Below, in pieces: positions 5,462 to 64,000 of a DNA stretch of 64,000 nucleotides. The notes under the pieces are model-generated. The model had not been told where the DNA came from. It saw only the letters and a program-made list of their open reading frames with translations, and searched no databases. Both the position numbers and the translations under genes were made by a program. Source of the DNA: Squalus acanthias (Eukaryota); the NCBI GenBank assembly GCA_030390025.1, contig CM059432.1, positions 64,172,001-64,236,000 on the forward strand, in the 5' to 3' direction. The number at the start of each line of letters is the position of its first letter. Within the stretch, counting starts at the first letter, position 1.

Positions 5462-5561
5462 ATTTAATCAACTGGACCTGCTCCACGCTCTGAGTGGTTT
5501 TGGGAACAGACGGCTACGACTCAAACGGTAGAAGGGAACCAGACGTAGTAATCAATCCATC

Positions 5562-6728: not shown

Positions 6729-6746
6729 TTCTCTACCCGGCTCGGG

Positions 6747-15246: not shown

Positions 15247-15249
15247 ATG

Positions 15250-15311
15250 AACTCTGTTTCTCTCTCCACGGATGCTGCCTGACCTGCTGAGTATTTCCAA
15301 TATTTTCTGTC
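15250..15311 (+). mobile_element. Short remnant of the 44242-44690 Penelope-type terminal repeat
   Basis: aactctgtttctctctccacggatgctgcctgacctgctgagtatttcc matches 44585-44632. Confidence 0.8.
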
Positions 15312-20756: not shown

Positions 20757-20760
20757 TAAT

Positions 20761-21479
20761 GGGCCAAAATTTGCTGCAAAATAACAGTGAGGCTAATGCC
20801 ACAGCAACTTTAGGCTAGAGCAGATGCGTGATTAAACGCAGAAATCGAAAAGTTCACGAAAACGGCATCTCACATCTAGCTCCTCATTCGAATTGAGCGG
20901 CGTTAAGTTCCTGAACTTGCACGGTAGATACGAAGTAAACTCGCCACAGAAAGTTAAGTCAAGTCATTTCAAGTCTACGTACCCTTTTAACAACATGATG
21001 AGTGTTCATTACTGCCAATCAACTTCTCTGGCACTGAAAATTAACTATTACATGTGTTGAGTCTCATTCCTTCAAGTTTTAATTGTTGCTGGAGATTTTT
21101 TTTTTAATTTAACATTTTTTTTTTACTTTTTCCTTTCTGTCTCTTTTTTTCTCTCTCTGTTAATCCAATCTTTCTTTCCGTCTCTTAATTTCTCTTTCTG
21201 TACCTGGTTTGGCATTGAATTTACCCACTCTAATTTACAATTCTTCCTCAGTCCTTGCGCTGTTAATTTCACAATGCCTCAATCTGATTGATTAGGGAGA
21301 TACACAGTTGCTTGGCCTGTTCACTCAGGTCCCAGATGCCCTGTAGAGGGCGCCGCACCATTTCCATCTCGCACTCCCAGTAATTTGCAGCACAAAATAT
21401 TGTCGCCATTAAATGGGCACGGGCAAGTCTAATTAACAGCGGGCGCTGGCTGTTGCCCTGCCACAGGAAATTCTGGGCC
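20761..21479. mobile_element. Harbinger-type MITE
   Basis: Imperfect TIRs GGGCCAAAATTT / AAATTCTGGGCC; flanks aat and att. Confidence 0.7.
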
Positions 21480-24809: not shown

Positions 24810-27800
24810 GGCTGAAATAGGGCTTTAACCTAAATAATGGAGTGGGGAGGGTTCAGGTCAGGGGAAATTTAGAAATCCAAAGAGAAAAGTCAAGGCAATG
24901 GAGCAGTGTAGCGATTTGGGTAAAGATAAGCAGCGTGTGACAGGAAGGGACAGAGAGTTTAACGGCAATAGTGCATCAGCGAATAAGGTGAAAGCAGGGA
25001 ATAATGGTAAAAATTTAAAATTAAAGGCTCTTTATCTGAATACATGAAGCATTCGTAACAAGATAGATAAATTAATGGCACAAATAGACATAAATGGGTT
25101 TGATCTAATAGCCATTACAGAGATGTGATTTCAAGGTGACCAAGGTTGGGAACTAAATATTCCAGGGTATTTGATGTTTCAAAATGACAGGTAGAATGGA
25201 AAAGGAGGGGGGTAGCCCTGATAATAAAGGATGACATAAGGACAGTAGTGAGGAAGGATCTTGGCTCGGAAGATCAGGAAGTAGAATCGGAATGGGTGGA
25301 GATAAGAAATAACAAGGGGCAGAAAACACTGATGGGAGTAGTTTATAGGCCCCTTAACAGCAGCTATACTGTTGGACAGAGTATTAACCAAGAAATAATA
25401 AGAGCTTGTAACAAAGGTAATGCAAGAATCGTGGGGGACTTTAATTTTCATATAGACTGGACTAATCAAATTGGCAAAGGTAGTCTGGAGGACGAGTTCA
25501 TGGAGTGCATTCGAGACAGTTTCCTAGAACAATACATTGTGGAAGCAACCATGGAACAGGTTATTTTACATCTTGTATTGTGTAATTAGAGAGGGTTAAT
25601 TAGTAATCTCATAATAAAGGATCCTCTGGGGAAGAGTGATCATAATATGATAGAATTTTATGTTGAGTTTGAGTGACATACTTTAGTCTGAAACCAGAGT
25701 CTTAAACATAAAACAAATTACATAGGTATGATGGGCGAGTTGGCTAAGGTAGACTGGAAAATTAGGTTAAAAGGATGGTGGTAGATAAGCAGTGGCAAAC
25801 ATTTAAAGAAATATTCTAAAATTCTCAATGAATATACATTCCATTGAGAAATAAAAATTCCATGTGGAAAGTGATTAATCCGTGGCTAACTAAAGAAGTT
25901 AAGGATAGTATTAAATTAAAAGAAGAGGCTTATAATGTTGCAAAAAATAGTAGTAAGCCTGAGGATTGGGTGAGCTTTAGAAACCAGCAAAGGATGACCA
26001 AAAAAAATTGATTAGGGAGAAAATAGAATATGAGAGTAAACTAGCAAGAAATATAAAAACAGACTGTAAGAGCTTCTACAAGTATGTAAAAAGGAAGAGA
26101 GTAGCAAAGGTCAGTGCTGGTCCCTTAAAAGTTGAGACAGGAGAAATTATAATGGGGAATAAGGAAATGGCAGAGACTTTAAACAAATGTTGTATATCTG
26201 TCTTCACAGTAGAAGACACAAAAAGCATACCAAATATAATGGGAACTAAGGGGCTAATAAGATTGAGGAACTTAAAGTAATTAAGATCAGTATAAAAAAA
26301 GTACTTGAGAAACTAATGGGACGAAAAGCTGACAAATCCCCTGGACCTGATGGTCTACATCCTAGGGTTCTAAAAGAGGTGGCTGCAGAGATAGTGGATG
26401 CATTGGTTAAGATCTTCCAAAATTCCCTAGATTCTAGAATGGTCCCAGCGGACTGGGAGGTAACAAATGTAACCCCGCCATTCAAGAAAGGAGAAAAAAA
26501 ATGGAACAACAGGCCAGTTAGCAGGACATCAGTCATTGGAGAAATGCTGGAATCCATTATTAAGGAAGTTGTAACAGGGCACTTAGAAAATTATAATATG
26601 ATTAGGCAGAGTCAACATGGTTTTATGAAAGGGAATCATGTTTAACAAATTTATTACAGTTTTTTGAGGATGTAACTAGCAGGGTAGATAAAGGGGAACC
26701 CTTGGCTGTAGTATATTTGGATTTCCAAAAGGCTAAAAAATAAAGTGCCACATAAAAGGTTGTTATGCAAGATAAGGACTCATGGGGTTGGGGGTAATAT
26801 ATTAGCGTGGATAGAGAATTATTTAACAGACAGAAAACAGAGTGTAGGGATAAACGTATCATTTTCAGGTTGGTAGGCTGTAATTAGTGGGGTGCCGCAA
26901 GGATCAGTGCTTGGGCCTCAGCTATTTATAATTTATATTAATGATTTACATGAAGGGCCCGAGTGTAATGTATCTAAGTTTGCTGATGATACAAAGCTAG
27001 GTGGGAAAGTAAGCTGTGAGGAGAACACAAACAGCCTGCAAAGGAATATAGACAGGTTAAGTGAATGAGTAATAAGGTGGCAGATGGAGTATAATGTGGG
27101 GAAATGTGTGATTATTCAATTGGTAGGAAGAATAGAAAAATAGAATATTTTTTAAATGGTGAGAAACTATTCAATGTTGGTGTTCAGAGAGATTTAGGTG
27201 TCCTTGTACAGGAATCACAGAGTTAGCATGCAGGTACAGCAAGCAATTAGGAAGGCAAATGGCATGTTGGCCTTTATTGCAAGGGAGTGGGAGTACAAGA
27301 GTAAGGAAGTCTTGCTACAATTGTACAGGGCCTTGGTGAGACCACACCTGGAGTACTGTGCACAATTTTGGCCTCCTTATCTGAGGAAGGATATACTTGC
27401 CTTAGAGGCGGTGCAACAAAGGTTCACTAGATTGATTCCTGGGATGAGAGGGTTGTCCTATGAGGAGAGATTGAGTAGATTGAGCCTATACTCTCTGGAG
27501 TTTAGAAGAATGAGAGGTGATCTCATTGAAACATAAAATTCTGAGGGGGATTGACAGGGATCGCCTGGTTCCATTCCTATCTATCTAACCGTAGCCAGAG
27601 AATCACCTGCAATGGCTTCTCATCACACTCCCACATTGTTATCTCTGGTGTCCCCCAAGGATCTATCCTTGGCCTCTTCCTATTTCTCATCTACATGCTG
27701 CCCCTCGGCGACATCATCTGAAAACACAGCGTCACTTTCCACATGTACGCTGATGACACCCTCATCGCCACTTCTCTCGACCCCTCCACTGTCTCTAAAT

Positions 27801-29020
27801 TGTCAGACTGCTTGTCTGACATCCAGTATTGAATGAGCAGAAATTTCCTCCAATTAAATATTGGGAAGACTGAAGACATTGTCTTCGGTCCCCGCCACAA
27901 ACTCTGCTCCCTATGCACTGACTCCATCTCTCTCCCTAGCATCTGTCTGTGGCTTAACCAGACCGTTCAAAAATGTGGTTTCATATTTGACCCTGAAATG
28001 AGCTTCCAACCACATATCCGCGCCATAACTAAGACCGCCTTTTTCCACCTCCGTAACATCGCCCGTCTCCGCCCCTGCCTCAGCTCATCTGCTGCTGAAA
28101 CCCTCATCCATGCCTTTTTTACCTCTAGACTTGACTATTCCAATGCACTCCTGGCTGGCCTCCCACGTTCTACCCTACGTAAGCTTGAGGTGATCCAAAC
28201 ACGCACCAAGTCCCGTTCACCCATCACCCCTGTGCTTGCTGACCTACATTGGCTCCTAGTTAAGCAATGCCTCGATTTTAAAATTCTCATCCTTGTTTTC
28301 AAATCCTTCCATGGCCTCGCCCCTCCCTATCTCTGTAATCTCCTCCAGCCTCACTACCCTCCGAGATATCTGCGCTCCTCTAATTCTGGCCTCTTGAGCA
28401 TCCCTGATTTTAATTGCTCAATCATTGGTGGCCGTGCCTTCAGCTGTCGAGACCCTAAGCTCTGGCATTCCCTCCCTAAACCTCTCCGCCTCTCTACTTC
28501 TCTTTCCTCCTTTAAGACGCTCCTTAAAACCTACCTCTTTGACCAAGCATTTGGTCATCTGCCCTAATTTCTGCTTATGTGGCTCTGTGTCAAATTTTGT
28601 TTTATAATACTCCTGTGAAGTGCCTTGGAGCGTTTTACTACGTTAGAAGGCGCTATATAAATACAAGTTGTTGTTGCGGATGCTGAGAGGTTGTTTCCCT
28701 TGGCTGGAGATCTAGAACTAGGGGTCATAGTCTCAGGATAAGGAGTTGGCCATTTAATACTGAGATGAGGAGGAATTTCTTCACTCAGAGGGTTGTGAAT
28801 TTAGAATTCTCTACCCCAAAAGGCTGTGAATGCTGAATTGCTGATTATATTCAAAGCTGAGATAGATAGATTTTTGGTCTTTAGGGGAATCAAGGGATAT
28901 GGGGATTAGGCGGGAAAGTGGAGTTGAGGTCGAAGATCAGCCATGATCTTATTGAATGGCGGAGCAAGCTCGAAGGGGCTGAATGGCCTACTCCTGCTCC
29001 TTATTCTTACACTCTTATGT
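24810..29020 (+). mobile_element. Near-complete decayed CR1 ORF2 plus 3' UTR, interrupted by L2
   Basis: [31 protein letters not shown]; resumes at 28678 with a ggat duplication. Confidence 0.93.
27561..28677 (+). mobile_element. 5'-truncated L2 LINE
   Basis: NFLQLNIGKTE, FHLRNIARLR, SRLDYSNALL, LHWL, FKTLLKTYLF (ORF 27833-28567); ggcgctatataaatacaa(gtt)n tail. Confidence 0.93.
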
Positions 29021-29093
29021 ATCTATAAAACGGTGCCTTCTCTCCCTGAGTCATTACAGAAATGTTTGCAGTTCCTAGCTAATCAAAGCATCT

Positions 29094-29699
29094 TTTCTCA
29101 CTCAATAACACCCAAAGCTATAGCAATTTGCTGAATAAAGAGCTAGATTTGCCTCTCAGTGCTATTTCAGGTGTTTGACTGCATCCTAATTATAATGCAA
29201 GGGTGATTTACAGGATTTCGTGCTGCTTCCTTCTTATTGGCTGGCTCACTGTATGGAAGAGATTTCCCACATTTTAACCCATACACTGAAAATAGCAAAA
29301 TTTTGTGTAAACCAACAGGGGAGAACTCTCCCAATAATGTTTAGTAACCCACAGTTATCCCTTGATTAGCAATTTGCAGGCACAATTTGCTCAGGCATCT
29401 TCACTGAGCACCATTATGTTTCTCCTTGCCACAATTAATGGTCACCCACTTAGGTTGCTAAGCTTGGCAGCATAGCTTTGCATCATTGGACAAAAAGAGG
29501 AGTTTAGACTGAGAAACTATGTACTCTGGTTTTGTTATTGTTGGGTAATTATACTCATGTATTCACATAGAGAATAATCGATATTTGTTCTTAGGACTTG
29601 CACTTAGGATGCAGTCAAACACCTGAAATAGCACTGAGGGGCAAATCTAGCTCTTTATTCACCAAATTGCTATAGCTTTGGGTGTTATTGAATGAGAAA
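29094..29699. repeat. 96 bp inverted repeat pair (29094-29189 and 29604-29699)
   Basis: Arms are reverse complements with about 3 mismatches; spacer about 414 bp. Confidence 0.9.
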
Positions 29700-29769
29700 T
29701 GCTGGCATGGCTGTATTCATTGCCCATCCCTAGTTGCCCTGAAAAGGTAGTGGTGGATGCTTCTCGCAC

Positions 29770-33553: not shown

Positions 33554-35579
33554 ACTGTCTAGGATCATACATGAAGAATGGCTACTCGGGCAAAGTACCA
33601 GAGAGCTGCAGGCACCTGTGGCGCTCTACCTCAGCAAAAGTCGTTTCCTGCAATTGCGGAGGGGAAAAAATGGTAATAAAAATTGCAAATTTAACAGAAA
33701 TATAGCACAGTAGGGCCAAACCTGAGATCCTGTGCTTTTAATGGAGAGCCGTATGTGGAGGGAGTGCCTCACAGGGGCATGCGGGCATGCGGCTAGTGAC
33801 TTTCTACTCATTAATATGAATGGATGGAACATCACAGGCTGTGCGTCTGCAATTTCCCGCAATACGCTTCCTGCGCTCTCAGCTGCCAACTGTGAGCACG
33901 GGATCAGCCCATATATTTTAATGTTCGATGAGCCCACTTACAGTGTTGTCAATTACCTCCAATGCGACTGTAGCCAGGTAACTGGCCTGATGACAAAACA
34001 CCCATAATTCTCAATGTATTCCGAATCTACATAAACACACCTTTTCTTTAATAGTTACACACACTATCCAAAAAATGAAGCTACTACTTTACCTACTGCA
34101 TATTATAATGTTGCATTATAATTAGCCCTTTCCATCAAACTAATGATTTACTATGAATAGACCATATCTGAAGCCTGGAGCAGATGCTGTCTTATCATGT
34201 TCAAGGTCTTCCTATTTTGTGATCAGTCTCAAATTGAAAGTAAAGGAAAGTTCACCTTTCTTTAAAATAATTGGTTTTGCAGCCAATACCTTTAGGTTGA
34301 CACCATGTTCTCGTTACATTTGACTTTGATTGTGTGAAACTCAGCTTGTAACTTTGGCATTTTTCAGTGATATTCTTTTCTCTGCTGTTTCTGTTGATTC
34401 AATAATTAACAAAATGTCCCAAAGGGGAATCATTATGCATATTATTTGGCAGCAAGTATTTTCCTGTCAGTGACAGTATTTTCCAATCGATTACTTCAGT
34501 TAAAACACCCTACCTAAGCTATTTTCAGCTTCCTTAAAAACCAGCCGACTATTGAATTGACAGGTACTGATGGAAGGACTGTTTTGGTCCTTGTGAACGT
34601 TGATTGCAATGATGCAATTCAGAGCTTCGTCTCTGAAGAGCTAACCAATATGATAAGAGCACTATAGCGGAAAATTGGGTGGCATGTAAAATATTTATCC
34701 AGCAGCAAAATCTGGTTAACTGTTGTTTTCAATCGTGGATACTAGACCCCACAAGTTCACAGGTCAATTCTCCTGATGTTTGCCCCCTGGGAATGCCATT
34801 TTTCCTTCATGCAAAGGTTAGGAAAAAGGGGCGGAGACCTGGCAAAACATTGCCCTGCGATTAGTGGGACTTTCTCGGGGATGTGCAGCTGGCCCAATGC
34901 CTGCAGTAGATGCAGAGCTATTGCAGAGATGCAAATGAGATAGGAGTGGAGGCGATCCTGGCCTCCCAGCACATTTTCCTGTTGCAACATTCACTAAGTG
35001 CCCCAGTGGAGGGACACCCAGTCACATGTGGTTCTATGGTTTGCCCCTAGACCCCTGCCAAACAGAGGGTCAAGCAGGGGTCCCAGGAGCAGGCCAAAGA
35101 ATTGCAAGTGAGTGCTCCATTGTTGTAACGCCCCCATCCAGGATGTTTGCAGGCATTGGTTGGAATTCAGCATCCAAAAGACTCCAATCTCAGAGGCCCA
35201 TTGCGCGCATACGTTTTACAGATGCAAGGCCCAGACAGGGCAAGCCTGGGCCATGTTAACGTACTGGAGTAGGAAATAGCGGAGCTCCTACGCCTGGATA
35301 GGAGCAGTACCCTGGTATCTGGTTAGTCGGGTGTTCCATTTCATTCTAACAATCTAGAATAATCCTGTAGTATTTGAACTGGAATTAAGACACGAGGGAT
35401 CATTTTAAAGGGTCTGCACTCCTGGCCGGGAGCCTAGCCCACTGGGAGCACATGTTGGAAATTCAAGTGCGCACTGCTCGTGATTTTCCAACCCTTTGTG
35501 GTTGGAAAATTGTGGTCAGTGTATTCTTGAATTTCTGATATGTGCTGCTAATGGGCACATCTCTCTCCCGGCAGCACAG

Positions 35580-36285: not shown

Positions 36286-36948
36286 ACCATACTGCAGACA
36301 TGCTGGATACACTTAATTCTCTGAACTTTCTATTGATCATCAAAAAAATAATTATGATGATGGCTTTTAAATCCTAGAGCAGCACACTATGTCCCACCCA
36401 AATCAATACTTGGAGTTTGCCCAAAAAATTATAATGAGACTCACCCTGGATAATAGTAGGGGAGAAATTGGGCTCTGTAGCACCCGGTCTTTTAGGTACT
36501 ACGTGGTCTCCTAATGCTTGAAAATGGCATCTGAGATGCGCATGCACACTTCCGATGAAAAGCACGCTGGCCGCCATCTTGGTAAAGGGGTTTGTGACTA
36601 CTGGCAGCATGCAGAGAAGGCAGATCATGAAGTCAATCAGTCTGTAACGCTGCTTTGACGCCACGCTGCCATTTTTGAACTCTATGCTCCAGCCTACACC
36701 CTGTCTTAAGCTCGTACAGCTGAACACTTGTTAAATAAAATGAAGGACCCCCTCCCACCAGCTCTATTTAAAGGGATCATGAACTACTTACAGATTAGTT
36801 GCTGGATTATTTCTTTTGGCTGCTGGTACAATTGTACGCAATTTTGGAGCTTTCCTATACTTGGCTAACATTTGAATCATCTACAGGGAGTAGTCTGGCT
36901 GGTGCTGAAGTACTTTTATGTTCATTTAAGAGCTTGTGCTGAAACATA

Positions 36949-37990
36949 TTGTTTCCAGATATGGGTGGGCTGGTAGGACTTTCTCTTGGAATTGAGCATG
37001 ACTGGGAGAAAGAAGAGAGGCCATGCAGAGCAGGACAAGCTGCTAGAAGAGGGAGGAGGAGGAGGGGGAGAAGGGCTCTCAGCAGGAAGCCATATCTGCA
37101 GAGTGTCTTTAGGGAGCAATTCTCTTACCTCAACTTCAGCGAAAACCAATGCTCGAGACGTCTTCACTTCACCAAAGATATTGTGACAGAAATCTGCCAA
37201 TTGCTGCAGCCACAACTGCAACCTCAAAGCAGGGCAAGGACATCATTGCCTGTGACTGTCAAGGTGACCGTGGCTCGTAACTTTTATGTGCCTGGCTCCT
37301 TCCAGACTGCTGCTGGAGATATAAGCAACATCTCAGTTTGCAGTACACTGCTGCATAAGGATGCCACTGAGGCTCTCTATACAGAGATAGACAGCTTCAT
37401 CTCATTCCCTCTTGCCAAAGACAACCAGGCAGAGCGAGCACGAGGATTTGCATGGATTGCAGGCTTCCCCAAGGTGGAGGGTGCCATTGACTGCATGCAC
37501 ATTGCATTGCATGTGCCTCATGTGAACTCAGCCATTTTCACGAACCGAAAGCGATTCCACCCCCTCAATGTGCAGCTGGTGTGTGACCACAGGCAACTCA
37601 TCATGCAGGTGAATGCCTGTTATCCTGGCAGTAGTCACGATTCCTTCATCCTGCGGCAGTCCTCTGTGCCACCTGTATTTGAACTACCACGGCAAGTCAC
37701 AGGCTGGCTGCTGGGCGACAAGGGTTATCCACTCATGACATGGCTCATGACTCCGGCCCAAAGCCCACGCACACATGCAAAACAACCCAAAATGAGAGCC
37801 ATGCCCCCACAAGGAACATTTTGAGCACACCATCGGCATCCTCAAGCAACGCTTCCACTGCCTGGACCGTTCTGGAGGAGCCCTACAGTACTCAGCTAAG
37901 TGGGTATCAAGATTTGTGGCAGTATAATGCATACTGCACAACTTCGCCATTATGAGGGAACAGCTCTTACCACCACCTATGAGAAACTGA
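36949..37990 (+). pseudogene. Harbinger (HARBI1-like) DDE transposase, frameshift near 37800
   Basis: GFPKVEGAIDCMHI, NVQLVCD, YPGSSHDSFIL, WLLGDKGYPL; then, in another frame, EHTIGILKQRFHCLDRSGGALQYS. Confidence 0.93.
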
Positions 37991-40186: not shown

Positions 40187-40866
40187 TGCTCAAAGTATCA
40201 CAGCCCAGATTGCCTTTTGAAAAAAAAAACACTTCTTGCAGCCACAATGCACCTCCCAAAGAGGTGCAGGCTGTCTTTAAGTAACTAGCCATTCGAGACA
40301 TTGGGCCCCCTGCTGATGTGTGCAGCCAATGAAGAGTGTCCATGATGTTTTACTGGAAATCACACCTGTGAACAAGCCAACGACGACTCGAGTCTGGATG
40401 ACTCTACGTCAGGTGGGATTACATGTAGCGTGACATGAACCCAAGATCCCGGTTGAAGCCGTCCTCATGGGTGCTCAACTTGGCTATCAGTTTCTGCTCG
40501 ATGATTTTGCGTTGTCGTGTGTCTTGAAGGCCGCCTTGGAGAACGCTTACCCGAAGATCCGAGGCTGAATGTTCTTGACTGCTGAAGTGTTCCCCGACTG
40601 GGAGGTAACAATCCTGCCTGGCGATTGTTGCGCGGTGACCGTTCATATGTTGTCGCAGTGTCTGCATGGTCTCGCCGATGTACCATGCTCCGGGGCATCC
40701 TTTCCTGCAACGTACGAGGCAGACAACGTTGGCCGAGTCACATGAGTATGTACCATGTACCTGGTGGGTAGTCTCCTCACGTGTGATGATGGTATCTGTG
40801 TTGATGATCTGGCATGTCTTGCAGAGGTTGCCGTGGCAGGGTTGTGTGGTGTCGTGGTCGCTGTTC

Positions 40867-41339
40867 GCAGCAAATTACCCAGCTTTCAGGAGAACAGCGA
40901 CCACGACACCACACAACCCTGCCACGGCAACCTCTGCAAGACATGCCAGATCATCAACACAGATACCACCATCACACGTGAGGACACCACCCACCAGGTA
41001 CATGGTACATACTCATGTGACTCGGCCAACGTTGTCTACCTCATACATTGCAGGAAAGGATGCTCCGGAGCATGGTACATCGGCGAGACCATGCAGACAC
41101 TGCGACAATGTATGAACGGACACCGCGCAACAATCGCCAGGCAGGAGTGTTACCTCCCAGTCGGGGAACACTTCAGCAGTCAAGGACATTCAGCCTCGGA
41201 TCTTTGGGTAAGCGTTCTCCAAGGCGACCTTCGAGACACACGACAACGCAAAATCATCGAGCAGAAACTGATAGCCAAGTTCTGCACCCATGAGGACGGC
41301 CTCAACCGGGATCTTGGGTTCATGTCATGCTACATGTAA
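40867..41339 (+). pseudogene. Penelope GIY-YIG endonuclease, C-terminal ORF fragment
   Basis: PCHGNLCKTC linker, NVVYLIHC...WYIGET, R..GH, EHF, EQKLI, GLN. Confidence 0.92.
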
Positions 41340-41669
41340 CCCCACCTGACGTAGAGTCATCCAGACTCGAGTCGTCGTTGGCTTGTTCATAGATGTGATT
41401 TCCAGTAAAAAAAGTAAAAAGTTTAAAGTTTTTGGTTTTCCATACAGACTGCAGCATCTGACACATTAGTCCCCTGTGACCCCACCTCATTGTCTGAGTT
41501 GTATTTTGTTATGTCTTTGATATAATGTCTTCCTGACTGACCTGATTGTCTCTCTGCCGAGGTGTGATAAAAGGCAGTCAGAAAGATTAACTGTAGTCGT
41601 CTGACATTGTACGCTACACAGGCATTGTTCTCTGTCTATATATGCTGTGCCGATTTGTATTTCTTCACT

Positions 41670-41707
41670 TCACCTGACGAAGGAGCAGCCGCTCCGAAAG
41701 CTTGTGA
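41670..41707 (+). ncRNA. Minimal type-I hammerhead ribozyme motif, family A
   Basis: tcac-CTGACGA-a-ggagc(agcc)gctcc-GAA-AGCT-T-gtga. Confidence 0.8.
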
Positions 41708-41949
41708 TTTCAAATAAAACTGTTGGACTATAACCTGGTGTTGTGCGACTTCTCAATGAAGAGTGTGGGGAGCATTGGCTGTATGCAGCAATCATTTAAA
41801 AGAGTAGGCAGCACCAATTTAACATGCTGCCTGCAATGCAATGAACGGACGCGAGTTAATCGCGTACCGCAATCCCCATGCCCGTTTTCGGAGTTAGCCA
41901 ATTTTTCCCCCTATGACTTTAGGCCTCATTACTTATAAGAGCACGAATC

Positions 41950-43961: not shown

Positions 43962-44120
43962 GGGGCGGATTTTGAACTTGCCGCCCAGGCGTAATCCTGG
44001 CGTTGCGAATTGGCCGCCCATTATAGAAATCAATGGAAGTGAACATTGGGAAGTTTCTACAATGGATGGCTGATCCGCAACGCCAGTTTTACGGCTGGGC
44101 AGTAAGTTCAAAAATTGGCC
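43962..44120. mobile_element. Short palindromic MITE
   Basis: Imperfect arms of about 65 bp: ttttgaacttgccgcccag / ctgggcagtaagttcaaaa. Confidence 0.75.
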
Positions 44121-44304
44121 TCTCAGATGTAGAAGGGGAGAGTTTGGCCTGCTCACTAGGTGTAACAACCTTGTAAATGCATTCTTTTTGAGTGGATTTA
44201 CAACGTTGTACACAGTGAGCAGAGCAACTATCATCTTCCTTATAAAAACAGAAAATGCTGGAAATACTCAGCAGGTCAGACAGCATCTGTGGAGAGAGAA
44301 ACAG

Positions 44305-44341
44305 AGTTAACGTTTCAGGTCGATGACCCTTCGTCAGAACT
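44305..44341 (-). ncRNA. Minimal hammerhead motif, family B
   Basis: Minus strand: agtt-CTGACGA-a-gggtc(atc)gacct-GAA-ACGT-T-aact. Confidence 0.8.
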
Positions 44342-44551
44342 GGAAAAAGTTGGAGATGGAGCAGGTTTTTAAGTAAGTGTAGGGGCAGGGAAAGGGGGGA
44401 GGGGAGGAAAGAACAAAAAGGGAAGGTCTGTGATAGGATGGAAGGCAGGAGAGATTAAGAAACCTTCCTCTTTGTTCTTTCCTCTCCACCCCTCCCCCCT
44501 TTCCCTGCCCCTACACTTGCTTAAAAACCTGTTCCATCTCCAACTTTTTCC

Positions 44552-44588
44552 AGTTCTGACGAAGGGTCATCGACCTGAAACATTAACT
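44552..44588 (+). ncRNA. Minimal hammerhead motif, family B, stem III mutated
   Basis: Same as 44305-44341 but ACAT instead of ACGT. Confidence 0.65.
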
Positions 44589-45329
44589 CTGTTTCTCTCT
44601 CCACAGATGCTGCCTGACCTGCTGAGTATTTCCAGCATTTTCTGTTTTTATTTCAGATTTCCAGCATCCGCAGTATTTTGCTTTTGTATTATCTCCCTTC
44701 AAGTGTATCTGTGCACTTTATCCATAGTAGCTGAATTCTTAATGGAATAATTAACACATTTAGTAACACAGATTGAAGCATAAACAAGTTAATCTGTCCA
44801 TTTTATGGATCTCCTTTCTCATGCTCTGCACGGGTCAGAAAATCCAGCCCTGATCTTGTGTACCTGTCTCATGTCATGCACAATCTGCTCATGACCAAAC
44901 ATGTTAGGCTGCACTATAGGCATGTGCAGGTCTCATTGGAGTTAATTAAAACAGATCCCACACCAAATCTTCTGACTTCATGCTAAACTCCAACCAAAGC
45001 GCACACCTCACCATATAAAATGGAAGCATGGAAGTCCTCGTACTTGGCCTGCTGAAACAGGCTTCTTAAACGGAAGATGACGGTTTTGGTTGGTGGTAAA
45101 AAAAAATTGTGGTTTTACGTACATTTTTCTGGATTTTGTTCAATTAATTAGTTGATTTTGCTGAGTAGGCTGCAATTATTGCATTCTTTGACTTTTTATC
45201 CTGCCAGTACTTCCCTTCAATATTCTTGGTTATCACTGATATTTAATTTGCACCATATAAAAGGGTAAGGCTGGATATTTGTTTGGGTGTTCTGATCATG
45301 CTGCAGATTTAAAGGAGGAGCCAACAAAT

Positions 45330-45767: not shown

Positions 45768-45960
45768 ACAAAAAGCAAAACAAACTGCAGATGCTGATAA
45801 TCTGAAACAAAATTTGAAACTGCTGGAAACACTCAGCAGTCAATCAGCATCTATGGAGAGAACAGTTGAGTTAACAGTTCAGATGTAGAACCTTCATGAG
45901 AACTGGAAGTTAATACAGATGAACAGCATTTAAAAAGGAACAGAAGGAGGAAGAAAGAGA
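45768..45960 (-). mobile_element. Decayed family B Penelope-type terminal repeat
   Basis: Resembles the reverse complement of 44520-44690; hammerhead core is mutated. Confidence 0.7.
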
Positions 45961-49070: not shown

Positions 49071-49499
49071 TGCTACCTAACAACTCATACCATCCACGGT
49101 TTGTGGGTAGGAGCAGGAAGTGACATTAGTCAGGTGGATAGGTCAGGAAATTGAATTGATGTCTTCATGAAGTCACACGACCCCAATTTGAACATATTTA
49201 TGAGGCTCCTAAATGCTTTGGATGGGAGCTCTGGTCACCAGGAATCCCCACACAGGAAAATCTTGAACAGGCTAATGATTGCGGGCTGTAATTTTATTGC
49301 AGTCGTTAGCCTGTTCAAGATAAATGTGTTAACAACTGTATTAAATTAAAACAGGCAAGAAGTTAACATGAGCGTATTACCAATGTGCTCAAAATAGACC
49401 AAACTAAATTCATTTGTATTTCTGACTTCAAATGATTTTACAAAACTCAAAGCAACCCATAACAAAGTAAACTAGCCAGGATTAGACTTCATTTAATGA

Positions 49500-49576
49500 T
49501 AAGTCGCACAACACCAGGTTATAGTCCAACAGATTTATTTAAAATTACAAGCTTTCGGAGCTGTTGCCCCTTCGAC
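49500..49576 (-). mobile_element. Short family A Penelope terminal fragment with a partial hammerhead
   Basis: gtcgcacaacaccaggttatagtccaacag...caagctttcggagc; the CTGA core is missing. Confidence 0.8.
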
Positions 49577-50999: not shown

Positions 51000-51648
51000 T
51001 CTTTTGGAGGTCTCCTTCACCTATCAGCAGGGAACAGGACCTCCCTGCGTGCTCTCACTGCCTCCACCAGAGTATGCAGGGATGCGTCAGAAATCGTGGT
51101 GCAGCCCTCACCTTTGCCACACTCACCGTTGACTATCCATCATTGTTCGTTTAGAACAGTACTCAGCCCTTTGTATTTCAGCTTCCACACTCCTCTAGCA
51201 ACCTTCAAATGAGTTGAGTGCAAGGCTGCTTTAAGTATTGGCGCTGGAAGCGAGTCATCGATGACATCATCAGACCTGCTCCATTTAACTGGTCCGAGAA
51301 ATGCGCTTGACTGCTTTAAGTGGGGCCATTAAGTTAAAGTCATCCTGAAGAATGCACTGAGCAAAGCATTGCGTTCCCGACCCGCTACGCAGCCTATACG
51401 CTCCCGACCTGACTCCACGGTAAAAATTCCATCCCAAGTTTTTGTCAGACAATTGAATTTCTACTTTATTAACATTTTTCTAAACCACCCAAAACAGTCA
51501 AAACAGATTTTAGCACAGCTGTTGGCATGTTACAGTGATCAGCTCACTTGATTGTTTTATGATGCGGAGATGCCGGTGTTGGACTGGGGTGGACAAAAAT
51601 GAGAAGTCGCACAACACCAGGTTATAGTCCAACAGTTTTATTTGAAAT

Positions 51649-51683
51649 TACGAGCTTTCGGAGCGCTGCTCCTTCGTCAGGTA
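51649..51683 (-). ncRNA. Minimal hammerhead motif, family A
   Basis: Minus strand: tac-CTGACGA-a-ggagc(agc)gctcc-GAA-AGCT-C-gta. Confidence 0.8.
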
Positions 51684-51917
51684 CAGTGAGGGAATACAAA
51701 TCGGTTACAAAGTATATATAGACAGAGAACAATGTGTCTGCAGAGATACAATCCGTCAGGAGGCATTACATCAAAGACACAGCAGAGTACAGCTAAGACA
51801 ATGAGGTTGGGTTACAGGGGGTCCAACGTGTCAAATGCTGCAGTCTGCAGTTAAGCTTTTTACTTTTTTTTTAATAAAACTGGAAATCACATCTGTGAAC
51901 CAGACAACGACGTCGAG

Positions 51918-52517
51918 TCACGTCCTGTAGCGTGACATGAAACCGAGATCCCGGTTGAGGCCGTCCTCATGGGTGCGGAACTTAGCTATCAGTTTCTGCT
52001 CGATGATTTTGCGTTCTCGTGTGTCTCGAAGGCCGCCTTGGAGAACGCTAACCCGCAGATCCGAGGCTGAATGTCCTTGACTGCTGAAGTGTTCCCCGAC
52101 TGGGAGGTAACAATCCTGCCTGGCGATTGTTGCGCGGTGTCCGTTCATACGTTGTCTCAGTGTCTGCATGGTCTCGCCGATGTACCATGCTGCGGTGCAT
52201 TCTTTCCTGCAACGTATGAGGTAGACAATGTTGGCCGAGTCACATGAGTATGTACCATGTACCTGGTGGGTAGTGGCCTCACGTGTGATGATGGTATCTG
52301 TGTTGATGATCTGACATGTCTTGCAGAGGTTGCCGTGGCAGGGTTGTCTGGTGTCGTGGTCGCTGTTCTCCTGACAGCTGGGTAATTTGCTGCGAATGAT
52401 GGTACTTTTGAGGTTAGGCGGCTGCTTGAAGGCAAGTAGTGGAGGCGTGGGGATGGCCTTAGCAAGGTGTTCGTCGTCATCGATGACATGTTGAAGGCTG
52501 CGAAGAACATGGCGTAG
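51918..52517 (-). pseudogene. Penelope linker plus GIY-YIG endonuclease, left arm
   Basis: Mirror of 52527-53126. Confidence 0.9.
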
Positions 52518-52526
52518 TTTCTCCGG

Positions 52527-53126
52527 CTACGCCATGTTCTTCGCAGCCTTCAACATGTCATCGATGATGACGAACACCTTGCTAAGGCCATCCCCACGCC
52601 TCCACTACTCGCCTTCAAGCAGCCGCCTAACCTCAAAAGTACCATCATTCGCAGCAAATTACCCAGCTGTCAGGAGAACAGCGACCACGACACCACACAA
52701 CCCTGCCACGGCAACCTCTGCAAGACATGCCAGACCATCAACACAGATACCATCATCACACGTGAGGACACTACCCACCAGGTACATGGTACATACTCAT
52801 GTGACTCGGCCAACGTTGTCTACCTCATACGTTGCAGGAAAGAATGCACCGCAGCATGGTACATCGGCGAGACCATGCAGACACTGAGACAACGTATGAA
52901 CGGACACTGCGCAACAATCGCCAGGCAGGATTGTTACCTCCCAGTCGGGGAACACTTCAGCAGTCAAGGACATTCAGCCTCGGATCCGGGGGTTAGCGTT
53001 CTCCAAGGCGGCCTTCGAGACACACGACAACGCAAAATCATCGAGCAGAAACTGATAGCTAAGTTCCGCACCCATGAGGACGGCCTCAACCGGGATCTCG
53101 GTTTCATGTCATGCTACAGGACGTGA
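52527..53126 (+). pseudogene. Penelope linker plus GIY-YIG endonuclease, right arm, 5'-truncated
   Basis: LRHVLRSLQH...PLLAFKQPPNLK...PCHGNLCKTC...VVYLIRC...WYIGET...GLN; the Cys-rich linker suggests the Neptune group. Confidence 0.9.
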
Positions 53127-53358
53127 CTCGATGTCATTGTCTGGTTCACAGATGTGATTTCCAGTTTTTAAAAAAAAGTAAAAAGCTTAACTGCAGACTG
53201 CAGCATTTGGCACGTTGGATCCCCTGTGACCCCACCTCATTGTCTTAGCTGTACTCTGCTGTGTCTTTGATGTAATGCCTCCCTGACGGATTGTATCTCT
53301 GCAGACACATTGTTCTCTGTCTATATATACTTTGTAACCGATTTGTATTCTCTCACTG

Positions 53359-53393
53359 TACCTGATGAAGGAGCAGCGCTCCGAAAGCTCGTA
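53359..53393 (+). ncRNA. Minimal hammerhead motif, family A
   Basis: tac-CTGATGA-a-ggagc(agc)gctcc-GAA-AGCT-C-gta. Confidence 0.82.
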
Positions 53394-54243
53394 ATTTCAA
53401 ATAAAACTGTTGGACTATAACCTGGTGTTGTGCGACTTCTCATTTTTGATTGTTTTAATCATTGCAATGTCCCCCTATTTTCTTCCCTCTCCAACATTCA
53501 TACTTAGCTCCCCCTTGCACTTACCAATGTTCTATTTCTTGGCAGGGAGACTGGATGACTCAACTGGTAAGCCTGCTAATATCGCTACAGACTCTGTGAC
53601 TGGCATTCCTTGTTGGCTGTGCCAGAAGATATACCTGAGTAGTGAGGGAAAGGTGTGCTTTGTTAATTTTCCCATCTTTCCATTAAAGTATTATTTATAT
53701 ATTTATTAATTCCAGTAAATGAAATGGCTTAATTGGATAAACCATGGTTGGTTTGGGCAGCAGTCCTTTAGTGACTTAACTAAGAGTTAACAAATGATAA
53801 CTAAGTGAACAGATTCAAGCAGCAACAGCAATTGAACCTGAGAGATCAATCTACTGCCGCTTATACTCGGCCAACTTGTATGGTATCAATTTATGATGTT
53901 GTTGAGTTCGGGGTTATCTTGTTGGGCCATAATCTTGCTGTCTGATCTGCAGACAAGAAAACTAGTTGAGCAGCAGGACTCTGCTATTTGGTGTGGGGGA
54001 TTGATCGGTTTATATCTATGGCCACTAGGTCTTAACTGGTAAAAAAAATCCTTTGGAGCATGTTTTCAGCCAATCAAAGCTGAATTATTTAGATTTGGTT
54101 CCCTCCTCAAATTAGTGATCAGCCCCAAAAGCCCAAGGAAATCAGGTAAGTAGGATAAGGGTTGTGAGCACCACTTACAGGAGTGACCAGTGACACTGAG
54201 CCAGAGAGTACATTTAGCACAAAAACATGAAAGGTGTGACAAT

Positions 54244-55539: not shown

Positions 55540-58401
55540 TCGCCAGATCTGACTGGACCACATAAAGCACTATTGGGACCTGCTCTCCTCTGCCAAATCT
55601 GCTCATTATTCCAGGATCATCCTGGAATGCAATTGGCTTATATTCTCCACTGCAAACCATCTTCTTAAACTCCTCTCCCCTGCCTCCTCCATCCTCATCT
55701 CCAACAAGAAGTGTGAGGAGCTTACGGACTTCTTTGTCACTAAGATTGAGACCATCCATTGAGCTAATTTGCTCCCTTCCCCTAGCCCACCCAACCAAAC
55801 TTCCCCATAGGTTCCCACTGCCCTAGCCCTGAACTCGCATCTTTCTCTAGTTTCTCTCCTATCTCCCTTCATGCCCTCTCCAAGCTCATCTTGTCCATGA
55901 AACCTACTTCATGCTCCCTCATCCCTATTCCCATCAAACTGCTGCCCGCCCCCCTCCCCCCCTCCCCCCCCGCCAGCTTCCCTTCCTGGCCCCCATGTTA
56001 GCTGATATTGTTAACAGTTCCCTCTCCTCAGGTACTGTCCCGTCCCAATCAAATCTTTCCCAAATCTCCATATTTGAACCCCTCCAATCAGGTTTCCAAC
56101 CCTGCCGCAGCACTGAAACGGCTCTTATCAAAGTCACAAATGGCATCCTCTATGACTGTGACCATGGTAAACTGTCCCTTCTCATCCTTCTTGACCTGTC
56201 TGCAGTCGTTGACATGGTTGACCACACCATCCTCCCCCAACACCTCTCCTCCGTTGTCCAGCTGGCTGGGACTGCCCTCGCCTAGTTCCATTCCTATCTA
56301 TCCAGTCATAGCCAGAGAATCATCGGTTTCTCTTCCAGCACTGTTACCTCAGGAGTCCCCCAAGGATCTATCCTTGGCCCCCTCTTATTTCTCATCTACA
56401 TGCTGTACCTTGACAACCTCATCTGAAAAAACATCAGGTTCCCCATGTACACTGACGACAACCAGCTCTACCTCACCACCACCACCACCTCCCTCGACGC
56501 CTCCACTGCTTCTGATTTGTCATCCTACTTGTCCGACATCTAATATTTGATGAGTAGCAATTTCCTCTCATTAAATACTGGGAAGACCAAAGTCATTGGG
56601 CTGAGATTTCCGGGGTGGTAACGGGCGCGAATGGTGGTGGGTCGGGGGTTCGAAAGTTGTTATTTTTGACTGGGTCAGGAACCCGCTGCCATCTCGCTCC
56701 CATGTGCCTTTCCCCCAGGCGCGCCTGTCATCGCAGAGCCGACCTGACTGGCAGTGACGGGTGACCCAATTGAAATGATCATCAGGTAGTTTGCAGGCAC
56801 TTAAGAGCCTTTTTTCACTTACTTTTTAAATTTCCCTGCATGGCCACAGGATTCACACAGCTCGGGAACCACGTCTGTCAACCTGTGGCGGGAGTTCCGT
56901 GGCCATTGCTCCAGCTGATTACCCGACAGCATGAAAAACAAAAGGAATTTGGACATGAGTCTAGGTTCGGATCGGTCATGGCCCTGTGGGTAGTGGAGCG
57001 GGCCCAGGGACCGTGTAGGCTGATTCTGCTCCTATTTCGTGTGTGCAATTCTGTTAGATGCAGGAGATGGTTCTGTGATAGTAGATAGTAGATTGGCGGT
57101 TAGGATCAGATCAGCCATGATCTTATTGAATGGCGGAGCAGGCTCGAGGGGCCGATTGGCCTACTCCTGCTCCTATTTCTTATGTTCTTATGTTAAACCA
57201 AAATGAAAACATGTTGATTACATCAGCTGACAGATTGATGGAGATCCTGTTCTACTTGAAAAGCTACTGGTAAATGTTAGTTCAGAAATTCCTGAAGGGA
57301 TGTGAGTGCTGAAGGCTCCCCTCCTACCCTGGATGGTGAGGGAAATACACTTTTCACTGGCCATTCTCGGCTGTTGCCTTCCAACTCAACACTAATTGCA
57401 GTGAATTGTTCTGCACTATAAAAAAATAAATATACCATTTATATAAATTTTTGTGTTGTTTCTGGTCAGGTTTTTCTAACAGTATACTGTGATTGCCCAG
57501 TTACAGGTTAAATCAAGTCATCAACTGTAACAATTTAATTCTCATCACTCATTCGACTGGTTCAATTTGCTTTCAGTCCCTGAATATAACTAATTTAATT
57601 TTTCAGTCTGAGACTTAAGGGTTGAATTTCTGCAGAGGATCTCTCATTTGTCCATTGTTAACGTCAACGGAAGAGCTGCAGAAATCCCTGAAACACATAA
57701 GCACCACTTATACTGTTTATCAGGGTTTCCGCAGCTCTTCCGCTGAACTTGCATAAGATTGTAAATCCACCCTTTACAATTACATTTAAAATCTGCTTAA
57801 TTTTATATATTACCAATACACACACATCTTTTATTTGTACCAATTACTGATACAAAAGTCGATAGATTTGTGACTAAGGAACCAATAACTTCCCAATTAA
57901 TGTACTGTTTTAATTATGTTCTTGATCATATTTGTAGATGATGTCATATTACTTAATGATAATATTATTTAAATATTTCTTTGTCATTCATATGTAACTT
58001 ATTATTTTATTGTAGAGTAAAAATTCAGCACCCACTTTGTTATATTAAACTTCAAATCCAATGTGGCCATGGTCCCTTTAAAGATCCCGGCTGAAAACGC
58101 GTCATGAATGACGTCACCAGGCCCAGCTCCATCTCATTGGGTCGGGTAACGCGCTGGGCGGGCTGAATAGGCCCCATTAAGGTAAGTTCATTTTCAACAG
58201 CGAGATGGAGCCAGCAGCGGGGTCGGGACCTGCCACGGACACCGCCCGCACCGGGACCCGTCCAGGTAGGCAAAATTCCGGCCAGTATCTTTGATCCCCA
58301 CCAGAAACTCCTTTCTCTGATCACTGACATCATCCCTCTCCCTGGCAACTGCCTGAGGCTGAACCAGACCGTTCACAACCATGGCATCCGATTTGACCCG
58401 A
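55540..58401 (+). mobile_element. Decayed L2 RT fragment in two pieces (55540-56597 and 58284-58401)
   Basis: [37 protein letters not shown]; resumes after an insertion. Confidence 0.88.
56598..58283. mobile_element. Harbinger-type composite insertion containing a CR1 tail (about 57060-57195) and a small palindromic MITE (about 57618-57772)
   Basis: Ends GGGCTGAGATTT / AAATTCCGGCC precisely interrupt the L2. Confidence 0.55.
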
Positions 58402-60030: not shown

Positions 60031-61515
60031 GAACATAAGATGTAGGAGCAGGAGTAGGTCATTTGGCCCCTTGAGCCTGCTCCGCCGTTCAATAAGATCA
60101 TGGCTGATCTGATCTTGGCCTCAACTCCACTTCCCTGCCCGCTCCCCATAACCCTCGACTCCCTTACCATTCAAAAATCTGTCTATCTTAAATATGTTCA
60201 ATGACCCAGCCTCCACAGCTCTCTGGGGAAGAGAATTCCATAGATTCACGACTCTCTGAGAGAAGAAATTCCTCCTCATTTCCGTTTTAAATGGGTGCCC
60301 CCTTATTCTGAAATTATGCCCCCAGTTCTAGATTCCCCCGCGAGGGGAAACATTCTCTCTGCATCTACCCTGTTAAGCCCCTTCAGAATCTTATATGTTT
60401 CAATAAGCTCCCTCACATTCTTCTAAACTCCAATGAGTATAGACCCAACCTACTCAACCATTCTTCATAAGACAAACCCTTCATCTCCAGAATCAACCTC
60501 ATGAACCTTCTCTGAACTGCCTCCAATGCAAGTATATCCTTCCTTAAATAAGGAGACCAAAACTGTACACAGTACTCCAGGTGTGGTCTCACCAATGCCC
60601 TGTACAGTTGTAACAGGACTTCCCTACTTTTATACTCCATTCCCTTTGCAATAAAGGCTAACATTCCATTTGCCATCCTAATTTCTTGCTGTACCTGCAT
60701 GCTAACTTTTTGTGATTCATGTACAAGGACCCCCAGATCCCTCTGTACCTCAGCATTTTGTAATCTCTCCCAATTTAAATAATAATTTGCTTTTTTATTT
60801 TTCCTACCAAAGTGGATAACCTCGCATTTTCCCACATTATACTCCATCTGCCAGATTTTTGCCCACTCACTTAGCCTATCTATATCAGCCTATCTATATC
60901 CCTTTGGAGATTCTTTGTTTCCTCCACACTATTTGCTCCGACCTATCTTTGTATCATCAGCAAATTTGGCTACATTATACTCGGTCCCTTCATCCAAGTC
61001 ATTAATATAGATTGTAAATAGTTGAGGCCCCAACACTGATCCCTGCGGCACCCCACTAGTTACAGTTTGCCAACCTGAAAATGACCCATTTATCCCGACT
61101 CTCTGTTTTCTGTTAGTTAATCCTCCACCCATGCTAATATATTATCTCCAACCCTGTGAGCTCTTATCTTGTGCAGTAACCTTTTATGTGGCACCTTATC
61201 GAATGCCTTCTGGAAATCCAAATACACACCATCTACTGGTTCCCCTTTATCCACCCTGCTTGTTACATCCTCAAAGAACTCGAGCAAATTTGTCAAATAT
61301 GATTTCCCTTTCATAAAACCATGCTGACTCTGCTTGACTATATTAGGATTTTCTAAATGTCCTGCTACCACTTCCTTTATGATAGACTCCAGCATTTTCC
61401 CAATGACAGATGTTAGGGTAACTGGTCTACAGTTGCCTGCGTTCTGTCTCCCTCCTTTCTTAAATAGGGGCGTTACATTTGTGGTTTTCCGGTCCGCTGG
61501 GACCTCTCTAGAATC
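60031..61515 (-). mobile_element. 5'-truncated CR1
   Basis: [48 protein letters not shown]. Confidence 0.95.
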
Positions 61516-61664
61516 ACCACTGGTCTTCATGCTGCAGTCTGGTAATAATAGATTCTCTCAACTAGTCGGAACCACTTGACACCACTACCATGGGAATTAC
61601 AGTCCTCACTGACTCATTCTTCCTTTATTATTTCAACAATAGTGATTATCAAAATAATAATAAT

Positions 61665-62471
61665 TAAAATCCATGACGAGGCCTTGGACAACGTGAACCA
61701 CATTCCATACCTCGGGAGCCTACTGTCAACGAGGGCAGACGTCGATGACGAAGTCCAACACCGCCTTCAGTATGCCAGTGCAGCCTTCGGTCGCCTGAGG
61801 AAGAGACTGTTTGAAGACCAGGACCTCAAACCCAGCACCAAGCTCATGGTCTACAGAGCAGTAGTGATACCCACCCTCCTGTATGCTTCAGAGACATGGA
61901 CCATGTACAGCAGGCGCCTCAAAGCACTGAAGAGGTACCACCAACGCTGCCTCCGCAAGATCCTGCAAATCCACGTCAATGTTCTCGCTCAGGCCAACAT
62001 CCCCAGCATCGAAACTTTGACCACGCTCGATCAGCTCCGATGGACGGGCCACATCGTCCGCATGCCCGATACGAGACTCCCAAAGCAAGCGCTCTACTTG
62101 GAGCTCTGACATGGCAAGAGAGCCCCAGGTGGGCAGAGGAAACGCTTCAAGGACACCCTCAAAGCCTCCTTGAAAAAGTGCAACATCCCCACCGACACCT
62201 GGGAATCCCTGGCCCAAGACCGCACAAAGTGGAGGAGAAGCATCTGGGAAGGCGCCGAACACCTCGAGTCTCTTCGCCGGGAGCAAGCAGAAGCCAAGCG
62301 CAAGGAGCGCACGTCAACCCAAGCACTCCACCCACCCCTTCAACCACTGTCTGCCCCACCTGTGACAGAGACTGTAGGTCCCGCATTGGACTCATACGTC
62401 ACCCGAGAACTCATTTTTAATGTGGAAGCAAGTCATCCTTGGTTACGAAGGACTGCCTAAGAAGAAGAAGA
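61665..62471 (+). mobile_element. 5'-truncated RTE-clade LINE
   Basis: YLGS, ASAAFGRLRKR, VYRAVVIPTLLYASETW, LRWTGHIVRM, C-terminal CPTC...IGL..H..TH; (AAG)n tail. Confidence 0.9.
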
Positions 62472-62905
62472 GTGACAACAGAGTCTGACACATTTTTGCA
62501 CAGCTTGAAATCACACTCTGTGATATTAGTAACGAGCACGCTAACCCATTGCCACATTTCAGCATTTGGAAAAAGCGTTTCTTTTAATGGGTTTTTAAAT
62601 GGAATGTGTATTCGCACAAATATGAAAAATAGAGCACCAAGATGACGGGTGGTTAATAAACTGAATGTATATCCAGAGACTTGACAATAAACAACTTGCT
62701 AGCTTGTCTAGGTAATCACAAAGCACCTCTCACCTATTGTATTGTAAACCTCTTTGACCTCTTTGAGGCGAGGGTTAAAAAAAGAGACACAGATACAAAG
62801 GCTGGCTTTTAGAATCAGGATGCGGAGATGCCGGTGTTGGACTGGGGTGGACAAAATTGAGAGGTCGCACAACACCAGGTTATAGTCCAACAGTTTTATT
62901 TGAAA

Positions 62906-62947
62906 TCACAAGCTTTCGGAGCTATCGATTGCTCCTTCCTCAGGTGA
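62906..62947 (-). ncRNA. Minimal hammerhead motif, family A
   Basis: Minus strand: tcac-CTGAGGA-a-ggagc(aatcgata)gctcc-GAA-AGCT-T-gtga. Confidence 0.78.
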
Positions 62948-63387
62948 AGTAAATTAGATACAGAATCGCCAAAGCATATATAGATAGAAAACAAAGCATG
63001 TGTACCTTACAATTGCAGACCACTAAATTAAATCATCCTGACTATCTGCCGAGGTGTGATAAAGTTAATTAAGTCAGCCAGGAAGGTACCACATCAAAGA
63101 CATAGCAAGATACAACTGAGACAATGAGGTGTAGTAAAAATTTTAAAGCTTTTCGTTTTACATACAGACGGCAGCTTTTGACATGTTAGAACCCCTGCGA
63201 CTACACCTCATTGTCTCAGTTGTATCTTGCTATGTCTTTGATGTGGTACCTTCCTGGCTGACTTAATTAACTTTATCACACCTCGGCAGATAGTCAGGAT
63301 GATTTAATTTAGTGGTCTGCAATTGTAAGGTACACATGCTTTGTTTTCTATCTATATATGCTTTGACGATTCTGTATCTAATTTACT

Positions 63388-63429
63388 TCACCTGAGGAAG
63401 GAGCAATCGATAGCTCCGAAAGCTTGTGA
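63388..63429 (+). ncRNA. Minimal hammerhead motif, family A
   Basis: tcac-CTGAGGA-a-ggagc(aatcgata)gctcc-GAA-AGCT-T-gtga. Confidence 0.78.
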
Positions 63430-64000
63430 TTTCAAATAAAACTGTTGGACTATAACCTGGTTTTAGAATCAGGACATTCCACAGGCAGTCAGGCAGCAAA
63501 AGACTGAGAAAAACAGGAGGCTACAGGAATATTCTATCCTGGGCTGCTAGACAGAATGCAGAGGACTTAGTCTGTTTAAGACAAGCAAGATGACCCACTG
63601 AAGTGGGATAGTGTAGCATGTTCATTATTTTTATGTTATTATGCAAAGTTAAGTTGTATTGATTGAACTAAATAGTCTGATAATAATTATTGCTTACTTT
63701 GGAATAAAGTAACTTAATGATTCAAACCAAGCCTCACCTCATCTGACGTTAACTCAGTTTGCCAACAGAGAAATTACAGAAATACATACGCAAAAGATAT
63801 AGATATTCAGTTTGGATCACAAGGGGGTTCTACTGCTATATCCCTGGGTCCTGCTATCATACAAGTAGATATAGGGCAGTGTGAGTCAACACTCATTGGT
63901 AAAATGCATAGACCACTTACAGAATGATACCAATACCATTGAACACAAGAAGGTATCTACAACAGCACTTATTTTTGACACCTGTTCATAAAAGATTCTA

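Follow-up and report, generated by a model that had tools for sequence, protein, structure and literature searches.

How does a retroelement come to lie in a genome as a nearly perfect palindrome, with its 3′ tail at one end only? The question is raised by a 1.9-kb palindrome in the 64,000-nucleotide stretch of Squalus acanthias DNA analysed here (the window, in whose coordinates all positions are given). The palindrome is genuine. Its left, tail-bearing arm (51594-52517, element sense on the minus strand) is 924 nt long and holds the 3′ end of an ORF, the 3′ UTR and the pLTR, while the right, tail-less arm (52527-53448, element sense on the plus strand) measures 922 nt. The two arms are alike at 900 of 925 alignment columns (97.3%), with a longest perfect run of 92 nt, and differ by 21 substitutions (15 transitions; 9 of CpG type) and two indel events. 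They are separated by a 9-nt spacer (52518-52526, minus strand) consisting of 8 nt that natively continue the left arm and one extra base. The native letters upstream of the arm were read from loose ends of public contigs before 52527 (runs X1, X5 and X22), and the proteins of relatives read GAEKL at the spacer position. The alignment of the arms stops at 51594, where the left arm alone runs on into the 34-nt Penelope ‘tail’ (51560-51593, minus strand), which resembles the tail at 62821-62870; loose ends behind 53448 in the public contigs (X1, X5 and X6) start with tail letters. The whole unit is enclosed by an exact 12-bp target-site duplication (TSD) at 51548-51559 and 53446-53457 (plus strand), the first 3 nt of the right copy being common with the end of the right arm. 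As a chance control, 30-nt windows were paired at random, and of 19,925 such pairs 2 had an exact match of at least 12 nt. The arms of about 920 bp, the 9-nt spacer, the 12-bp TSD and the 3′ tail on one arm only that were given in a preliminary description of this DNA are all borne out. The surroundings of the locus yielded no host gene.

That the palindrome could be a fold-back artefact of assembly, or the product of two independent insertions, can practically be discounted. Among the public contigs listed none spans the centre, and those that cross the right junction in X1 and X5 have only 16 and 25 arm-side letters against a bridge threshold of 31, which would be compatible with an artefact. 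Against this, the substitutions between the arms are CpG-rich and include changes private to either arm: at 443 positions that could be polarised with the copies at 40340 (described below), five private substitutions are found in the left arm and three in the right. Such arm-private changes argue against a fold-back artefact, and the two arms have decayed independently since insertion. Contigs from two samples also pass from the end of the tail-less arm into the right flank (X1, 53433-54201; X5, 53424-53947). A single TSD around the whole unit, a tail on one side and the rare alleles that the arms share also speak against an artefact or independent insertions. The public contigs, compared over the spacer, right arm and right flank (X22 without cover over most of the flank), showed no empty site. 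It had been argued earlier that an artefact was unlikely given the TSD and the arm mismatches, and with an exact 12-bp repeat and 21 substitutions this judgement stands.

The arms derive from a Penelope-like element (PLE) with a GIY-YIG endonuclease, the identity originally proposed. An open frame of 202 codons in the left arm (51918-52526, minus strand) encodes the end of the RT thumb, a CX4CXXC linker and a CCHH-type GIY-YIG endonuclease, without the RT core and without a start, and an open frame of 199 codons in the right arm (52527-53126, plus strand) encodes the same linker and endonuclease, so that the earlier claim of both domains on both arms is sound, with about 200 open codons each. 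The top match to the arm protein is a 643-residue shark RT protein that is 88% identical (36 longer proteins were found among 489 candidates). The PLE-type RT that is absent from the truncated main copy is carried by P0001, a relative with 88% identity across the query, and by the further relative P0006 (RVT_1), and RT-bearing relatives show the same domain order of RT, linker and endonuclease. Within an alignment of 14 sequences, the endonuclease residues Y102, C106, C110, Y115, G117, H130 and H146 are invariant in all 14 and R124, E176 and N191 are kept at 90% or more, and the linker cysteines C63, C68 and C71 are likewise invariant. The Pfam GIY-YIG model matched one of three window proteins, the right-arm frame, at a score below its cutoff (21.1 versus 22.6 bits, E 4e-4). 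The CCHH motif, with two cysteines between GIY and YIG, is found in the main-copy endonuclease. A linker of the form CX2-5CxxC, which that of the main copy matches, and a GIY-YIG domain at the C terminus with the CCHH motif are given as features of Neptune-type elements in the accessible text of PMC8557442. With the RT core missing, the assignment to the Neptune clade is made by linker and endonuclease, and Nematis elements also have the linker motif. The main locus is almost certainly a dead-on-arrival, 5′-truncated Neptune-type insertion that arose in a single integration event; without an RT core it is non-autonomous and unable to move alone. A full-length copy of the element, with the direct pLTRs of a partial tandem, is absent from the window. 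A new class of element was considered and is ruled out by this homology and by the published layout of such insertions. Both main arms read YRT-stop where relatives read YM-stop (53118-53135 and its mirror), a further common trait of the source copy. Pieces of the endonuclease, at 53-86% identity, are also contained in shark gene models that bear the names of host genes, among them septin 5a, XRCC5, a cytochrome P450 and USP8 (proteins P0005, P0012, P0015, P0018, P0020, P0032, P0034 and P0036); these pieces are either exonised copies or annotation errors.

Each arm also carries a minimal type I hammerhead motif, at 51648-51684 (minus strand) in the left arm and at 53358-53394 (plus strand) in the right, recognised by a match to the core, by pairing in helices I and II and by covariation; cleavage in the right arm is predicted after 53390. 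The preliminary description had the arms ending in a hammerhead, which needs correction, as 62 nt of arm still follow the hammerhead core. For the pairing test the structure was drawn by hand and compared over six distinct but related window copies: pairing was found in 58 of 60 cells, and all four helix I pairs change on both sides. None of 500 shuffles reached the score of the motif, and slid controls gave 23-40%. Rfam, at its gathering score, returned no match of any kind in the whole window, hammerheads included. Minimal PLE hammerhead motifs are described as cleaving poorly and as dimers in the accessible text of PMC4209133.

The general arrangement of the insertion is familiar. The canonical PLE layout, as the consulted part of PMC3846280 gives it, has an inverted pLTR, an optional 31-bp tail and TSDs of 8-10 bp, and an inverted 5′-truncated copy, together with a tail of 30-40 bp on one end, is called typical of endonuclease-bearing (EN+) PLEs in the legend of Fig. 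2 of PMC8557442; the earlier remark that Penelope elements often have inverted terminal copies thus agrees with published layouts. Shared with the canonical EN+ unit, Pen2a_Av, are the head-to-head inverted copy, the tail at one end, the short TSD, the pLTR hammerhead and the 5′ truncation. Unlike Pen2a_Av, the main locus has no ORF-bearing direct pLTR unit, and both of its arms are 5′-truncated and nearly equal, so that the whole insert is a palindrome. Its inverted arm of 922 nt extends 600 nt into the ORF, compared with 181 bp in Pen2a_Av, and its TSD is 12 bp rather than 8-10. The main insertion is therefore of a known kind, with an inverted arm longer than the published example of an inverted pLTR.

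If both arms arose in one event, were they copied from one template? The alleles carried by the arms were compared over 35 family variants inside the arm, among those listed, with contig depth serving as a rough measure of allele. The main arms agree at 16 of 17 sites that are polymorphic in the family, a CpG being the one at which they differ, and share two rare alleles (52647 and 53060) that are missing from about 99% or more of the family depth. Both main arms are also unlike both 40340 arms at 8 of the 443 polarised positions, which again points to one template. Independent insertions are thereby excluded, and the earlier view that both arms stem from one insertion and one template is upheld. 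The shared alleles fit either a fold-back or two RNAs from one source, and later gene conversion between the arms is possible. The two arms at 40340 have different family alleles at 3 of 10 polymorphic sites, one of the three being a CpG (rough p 0.001-0.008 for all three).

Further insertions of this form in the window allow the main locus to be placed in a series. The insertion at 40340 (40327-41766) belongs to the same family and has an exact 13-bp TSD. On its tail side there is only an 8-nt stub, the last 5 nt of which match the tail end, followed by a 519-nt arm and a 25-nt spacer that comes from the 889-nt tail-less arm; the tail-less arm carries 345 outer nt that are missing from the left arm. 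A search with residues 1-200 of P0006 (3 matches) found no shark N-terminus by which to define the ORF start for the stub. In the short arm (40348-40866), two A-to-G changes in element sense are private and lie 5 nt from each other, at the equivalents of 52822 and 52827; they are too few to call template-RNA editing. A related non-coding copy at 62819 (62807-63474) has an exact 14-bp TSD, a tail on the left and a 64-nt spacer from the tail-less arm; its arms are 99% alike (263/265), and the tail-less one ends some 22 nt before the tail boundary is reached. The insertion at 44242 (44229-44699) is of another, non-coding hammerhead family and has a 35-nt tail on the right and a 34-nt spacer that is continuous with the tail-less arm, a polarity read from a single window copy. 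Its 13-bp TSD has two mismatches, and an exact repeat of at least 5 nt is absent. A tail on one side and a TSD of 9-14 bp had been described as a recurring pattern. The TSDs of 14 bp at 62819 and 13 bp at 40340 and 44242 agree with this, with the reservations that the repeat at 44242 is mismatched and that 40340 retains only a stub of tail.

The spacers at these sites differ in their origin. Those at 40340 and 62819 align with other copies in the orientation of the tail-less arm, so that with 44242, judged from continuity only, the spacer belongs to the tail-less arm at three of the four sites and to the tail-bearing arm at the main locus alone. Spacers are short (9, 25, 34 and 64 nt) whatever the length of the arms (about 190-920 nt). 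The turns show a little microhomology: at the main locus one extra base after the 8 native spacer bases is followed by a possible 2-nt pairing, while at least 3 of 5 nt are paired at 40340 and 3 nt at 62819. Solo tail-less ends of two hammerhead families, both 5′-truncated (49495-49574, minus strand; 15246-15313, plus strand), stop at 49495 and 15313 within about 6 nt of the tail boundary, without an inverted partner, and an old tail-bearing copy of the 44242 family (78%) lies at 45771-45908 on the minus strand. No convincing TSD was found around these three solo copies. Within public contigs, 3 of 15 joints among those listed are to the opposite strand, indicating that inversion recurs in the family, and long unlike continuations are seen in 4 of 24 loose-end entries among those listed, all at 53440-53448 and with 41-83 contigs each. 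Motif scans of two metagenome collections, one viral and one prokaryote genome collection found no loci in any.

What reaction would leave insertions of this form? From the four sites, we consider there to be about an even chance that both target nicks were primed, from a pair of RT start sites lying on either side of the tail, and that fold-back followed. The element protein would cut AT-rich DNA with a stagger of 9-12 nt, to which the observed TSDs point. Both 3′ ends would then prime reverse transcription, one at the tail-end site and the other about 34 nt upstream. One cDNA would run long, stall and turn back on a match of 2-5 nt; presumably this was the tail-primed cDNA, of 967 nt, at the main locus and the tail-less one at the other three sites. 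The returning sense strand would finally anneal or be joined to the short cDNA made at the opposite target end, with repair sealing the product. Two nicked ends priming at different start sites would give a tail on one arm only, and one long cDNA that turns back would give a short spacer of either polarity together with a single template. That either arm can own the spacer (the tail-bearing arm once, the tail-less arm three times) speaks for this sequence of steps, and short spacers regardless of arm length are what a hairpin turn predicts. Also in its favour are the microhomology at the turns, the single template of the main arms, the solo tail-less copies that stop near the tail boundary and the long unlike loose ends at 53440-53448. 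The insertion at 40340 would be a case caught with an unfinished return strand joined to the stub, and needs no later deletion under two-primer fold-back. The more general proposition, that inverted Penelope insertions are the footprint of two-primer integration by a dimeric RT, with either or both cDNAs supplying the palindrome, seems to us somewhat better than an even prospect.

Biochemical work on another element provides a parallel. The protein of PAc, a Poseidon element of Anolis carolinensis, cleaves and extends both target strands in vitro, and its RT begins at two RNA sites that bracket the tail; a dimer is predicted (PMC11167929, accessible text). The likeness to the insertions described here lies in a tail that would be set between two start sites, in the AT-rich target and in little or no homology between primer and template, with 0-3 nt at the arm ends of the main locus. 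Poseidon is a different clade, that text does not show extension of both strands on a single molecule, and the portion available does not tie both-strand priming to inverted copies, the word ‘inverted’ occurring there once, for a dT block. A paper making this connection was not found in our search; one may exist, as most subscription journals and supplements lay outside it. Several observations weigh against two-primer fold-back. The evidence comes from four sites only, and the main locus by itself cannot separate dual from single priming. A pure fold-back would not produce the differences between the 40340 arms at 3 of 10 polymorphic sites. The tail-less end at 62819 is displaced by about 22 nt from its usual position, no TSD could be detected around the solo copies, and the in-vitro work concerns a clade other than that of the shark element.

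The model first put forward for this locus had a single tail-primed cDNA folding back and being recopied to just before the tail. Such a cDNA would form its loop from the tail-bearing arm and leave the second arm contained in the first. This is allowed at the main locus, where 8 of the 9 spacer bases continue the tail arm, and indeed fits it fully, with a right arm contained in the left, one template and a 3-nt overlap with the TSD. As a shared mechanism it fails as stated at three of the four sites, where the spacer comes from the tail-less arm and neither of the arms is contained in its partner. A tail-less spacer could also result if palindrome centres suffered asymmetric deletion once inserted, and a single primer could be rescued by ascribing the other polarities to such deletions. 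At 40340, however, two separate later deletions would be required, while the 62819 arms are so alike that the insertion is young, yet it already shows the opposite polarity. A single primer also gives no reason for ends to cluster and stop at the tail boundary. We regard it as distinctly unlikely. A somewhat less doubtful alternative, though still an improbable one, is dual priming without fold-back, in which a dimeric RT makes two long cDNAs in step, on two RNAs or two tandem units, and their 3′ ends are joined at microhomology. Either spacer polarity would then be seen, and the alleles that differ between the 40340 arms, two of them non-CpG, hint at two templates and keep this alternative alive. 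It also draws on the both-strand extension and predicted dimer of PMC11167929 and on a report that the reciprocal end in L1 insertion was extended on a different mRNA (10.1101/2024.12.14.628481, as far as its accessible part goes). The two cDNAs would, however, have to end no more than 9-64 nt apart at all four sites, the main arms share rare alleles, and 40340 would call for the additional loss of some 370 nt.

Twin priming of L1, as described by Ostertag and Kazazian in 2001, reportedly inverts an adjacent, non-overlapping segment of one RNA. Joining of two long cDNAs would resemble it in being head-to-head, with segments that overlap rather than adjoin. The main locus would share with it the priming of cDNA at both target ends, together with a microhomology junction and one TSD (partly from the accessible portion of 10.1101/2024.12.14.628481), and differs in that its arms duplicate the same sequence. 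Self-priming has already been proposed for inverted PLE structures: on the account of Arkhipova et al. 2013, in the consulted part of PMC3846280, a bidirectionally transcribed pLTR template would yield a head-to-head unit before or during integration by self-priming on the antisense transcript. The short palindromic matches at the turns are in its favour. As an explanation of the present sites it is very improbable, since the turn points differ at every site and are not inherited from one template, a one-sided tail is not explained by self-priming alone, and synthesis in vitro was target-primed on sense RNA (PMC11167929, accessible text).

The available text of PMC8557442 calls the way in which PLEs form tandem and inverted structures undefined, and that of PMC11167929 describes what follows priming as unvalidated. 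The main locus is a fossil, of value for the data it provides. Spacer polarity, the end points of the arms and their haplotypes each offer a countable prediction by which one-primer fold-back, its two-primer form and the joining of two cDNAs can be told apart; the polarity test corrects the single-primer model and makes an open mechanistic question countable. Were two-primer integration true, the one-sided tail and the inverted copy would be explained by one reaction. The central 89 nt, the centre having 50% G+C, fold as a DNA hairpin of -52.5 kcal/mol, so that a hairpin or cruciform is possible on paper. Palindromes of this sort would be sources of long dsRNA if they lay in transcribed regions. 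A>G and T>C differences are about equally frequent in the DNA contigs (9 and 9 in X1), and DNA contigs are uninformative on ADAR.

The remainder of the window holds other mobile elements. An LTR retrotransposon at 5532-9471, whose domains for RT, RNase H and integrase fall in different, broken frames, is putatively Ty3/Gypsy-like by its domain order. A fragment of a Harbinger-type DDE transposase lies at 36943-37824 (Pfam DDE_Tnp_4, E 5e-17). Inverted repeats of 101 nt (95%) at 29089-29189 and 29604-29704, 414 nt apart and present as a single copy in the window, look like a non-autonomous DNA transposon. There are many decayed RT fragments of LINE type, the family being putative, at 592-2148, 19842-20792, 26250-26645, 27833-28567 and 60413-62420. 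Short imperfect palindromes (70-83%) that are unrelated to Penelope ends are found at 43970-44113, 35437-35556, 57664-57746, 3305-3388 and 15015-15074.
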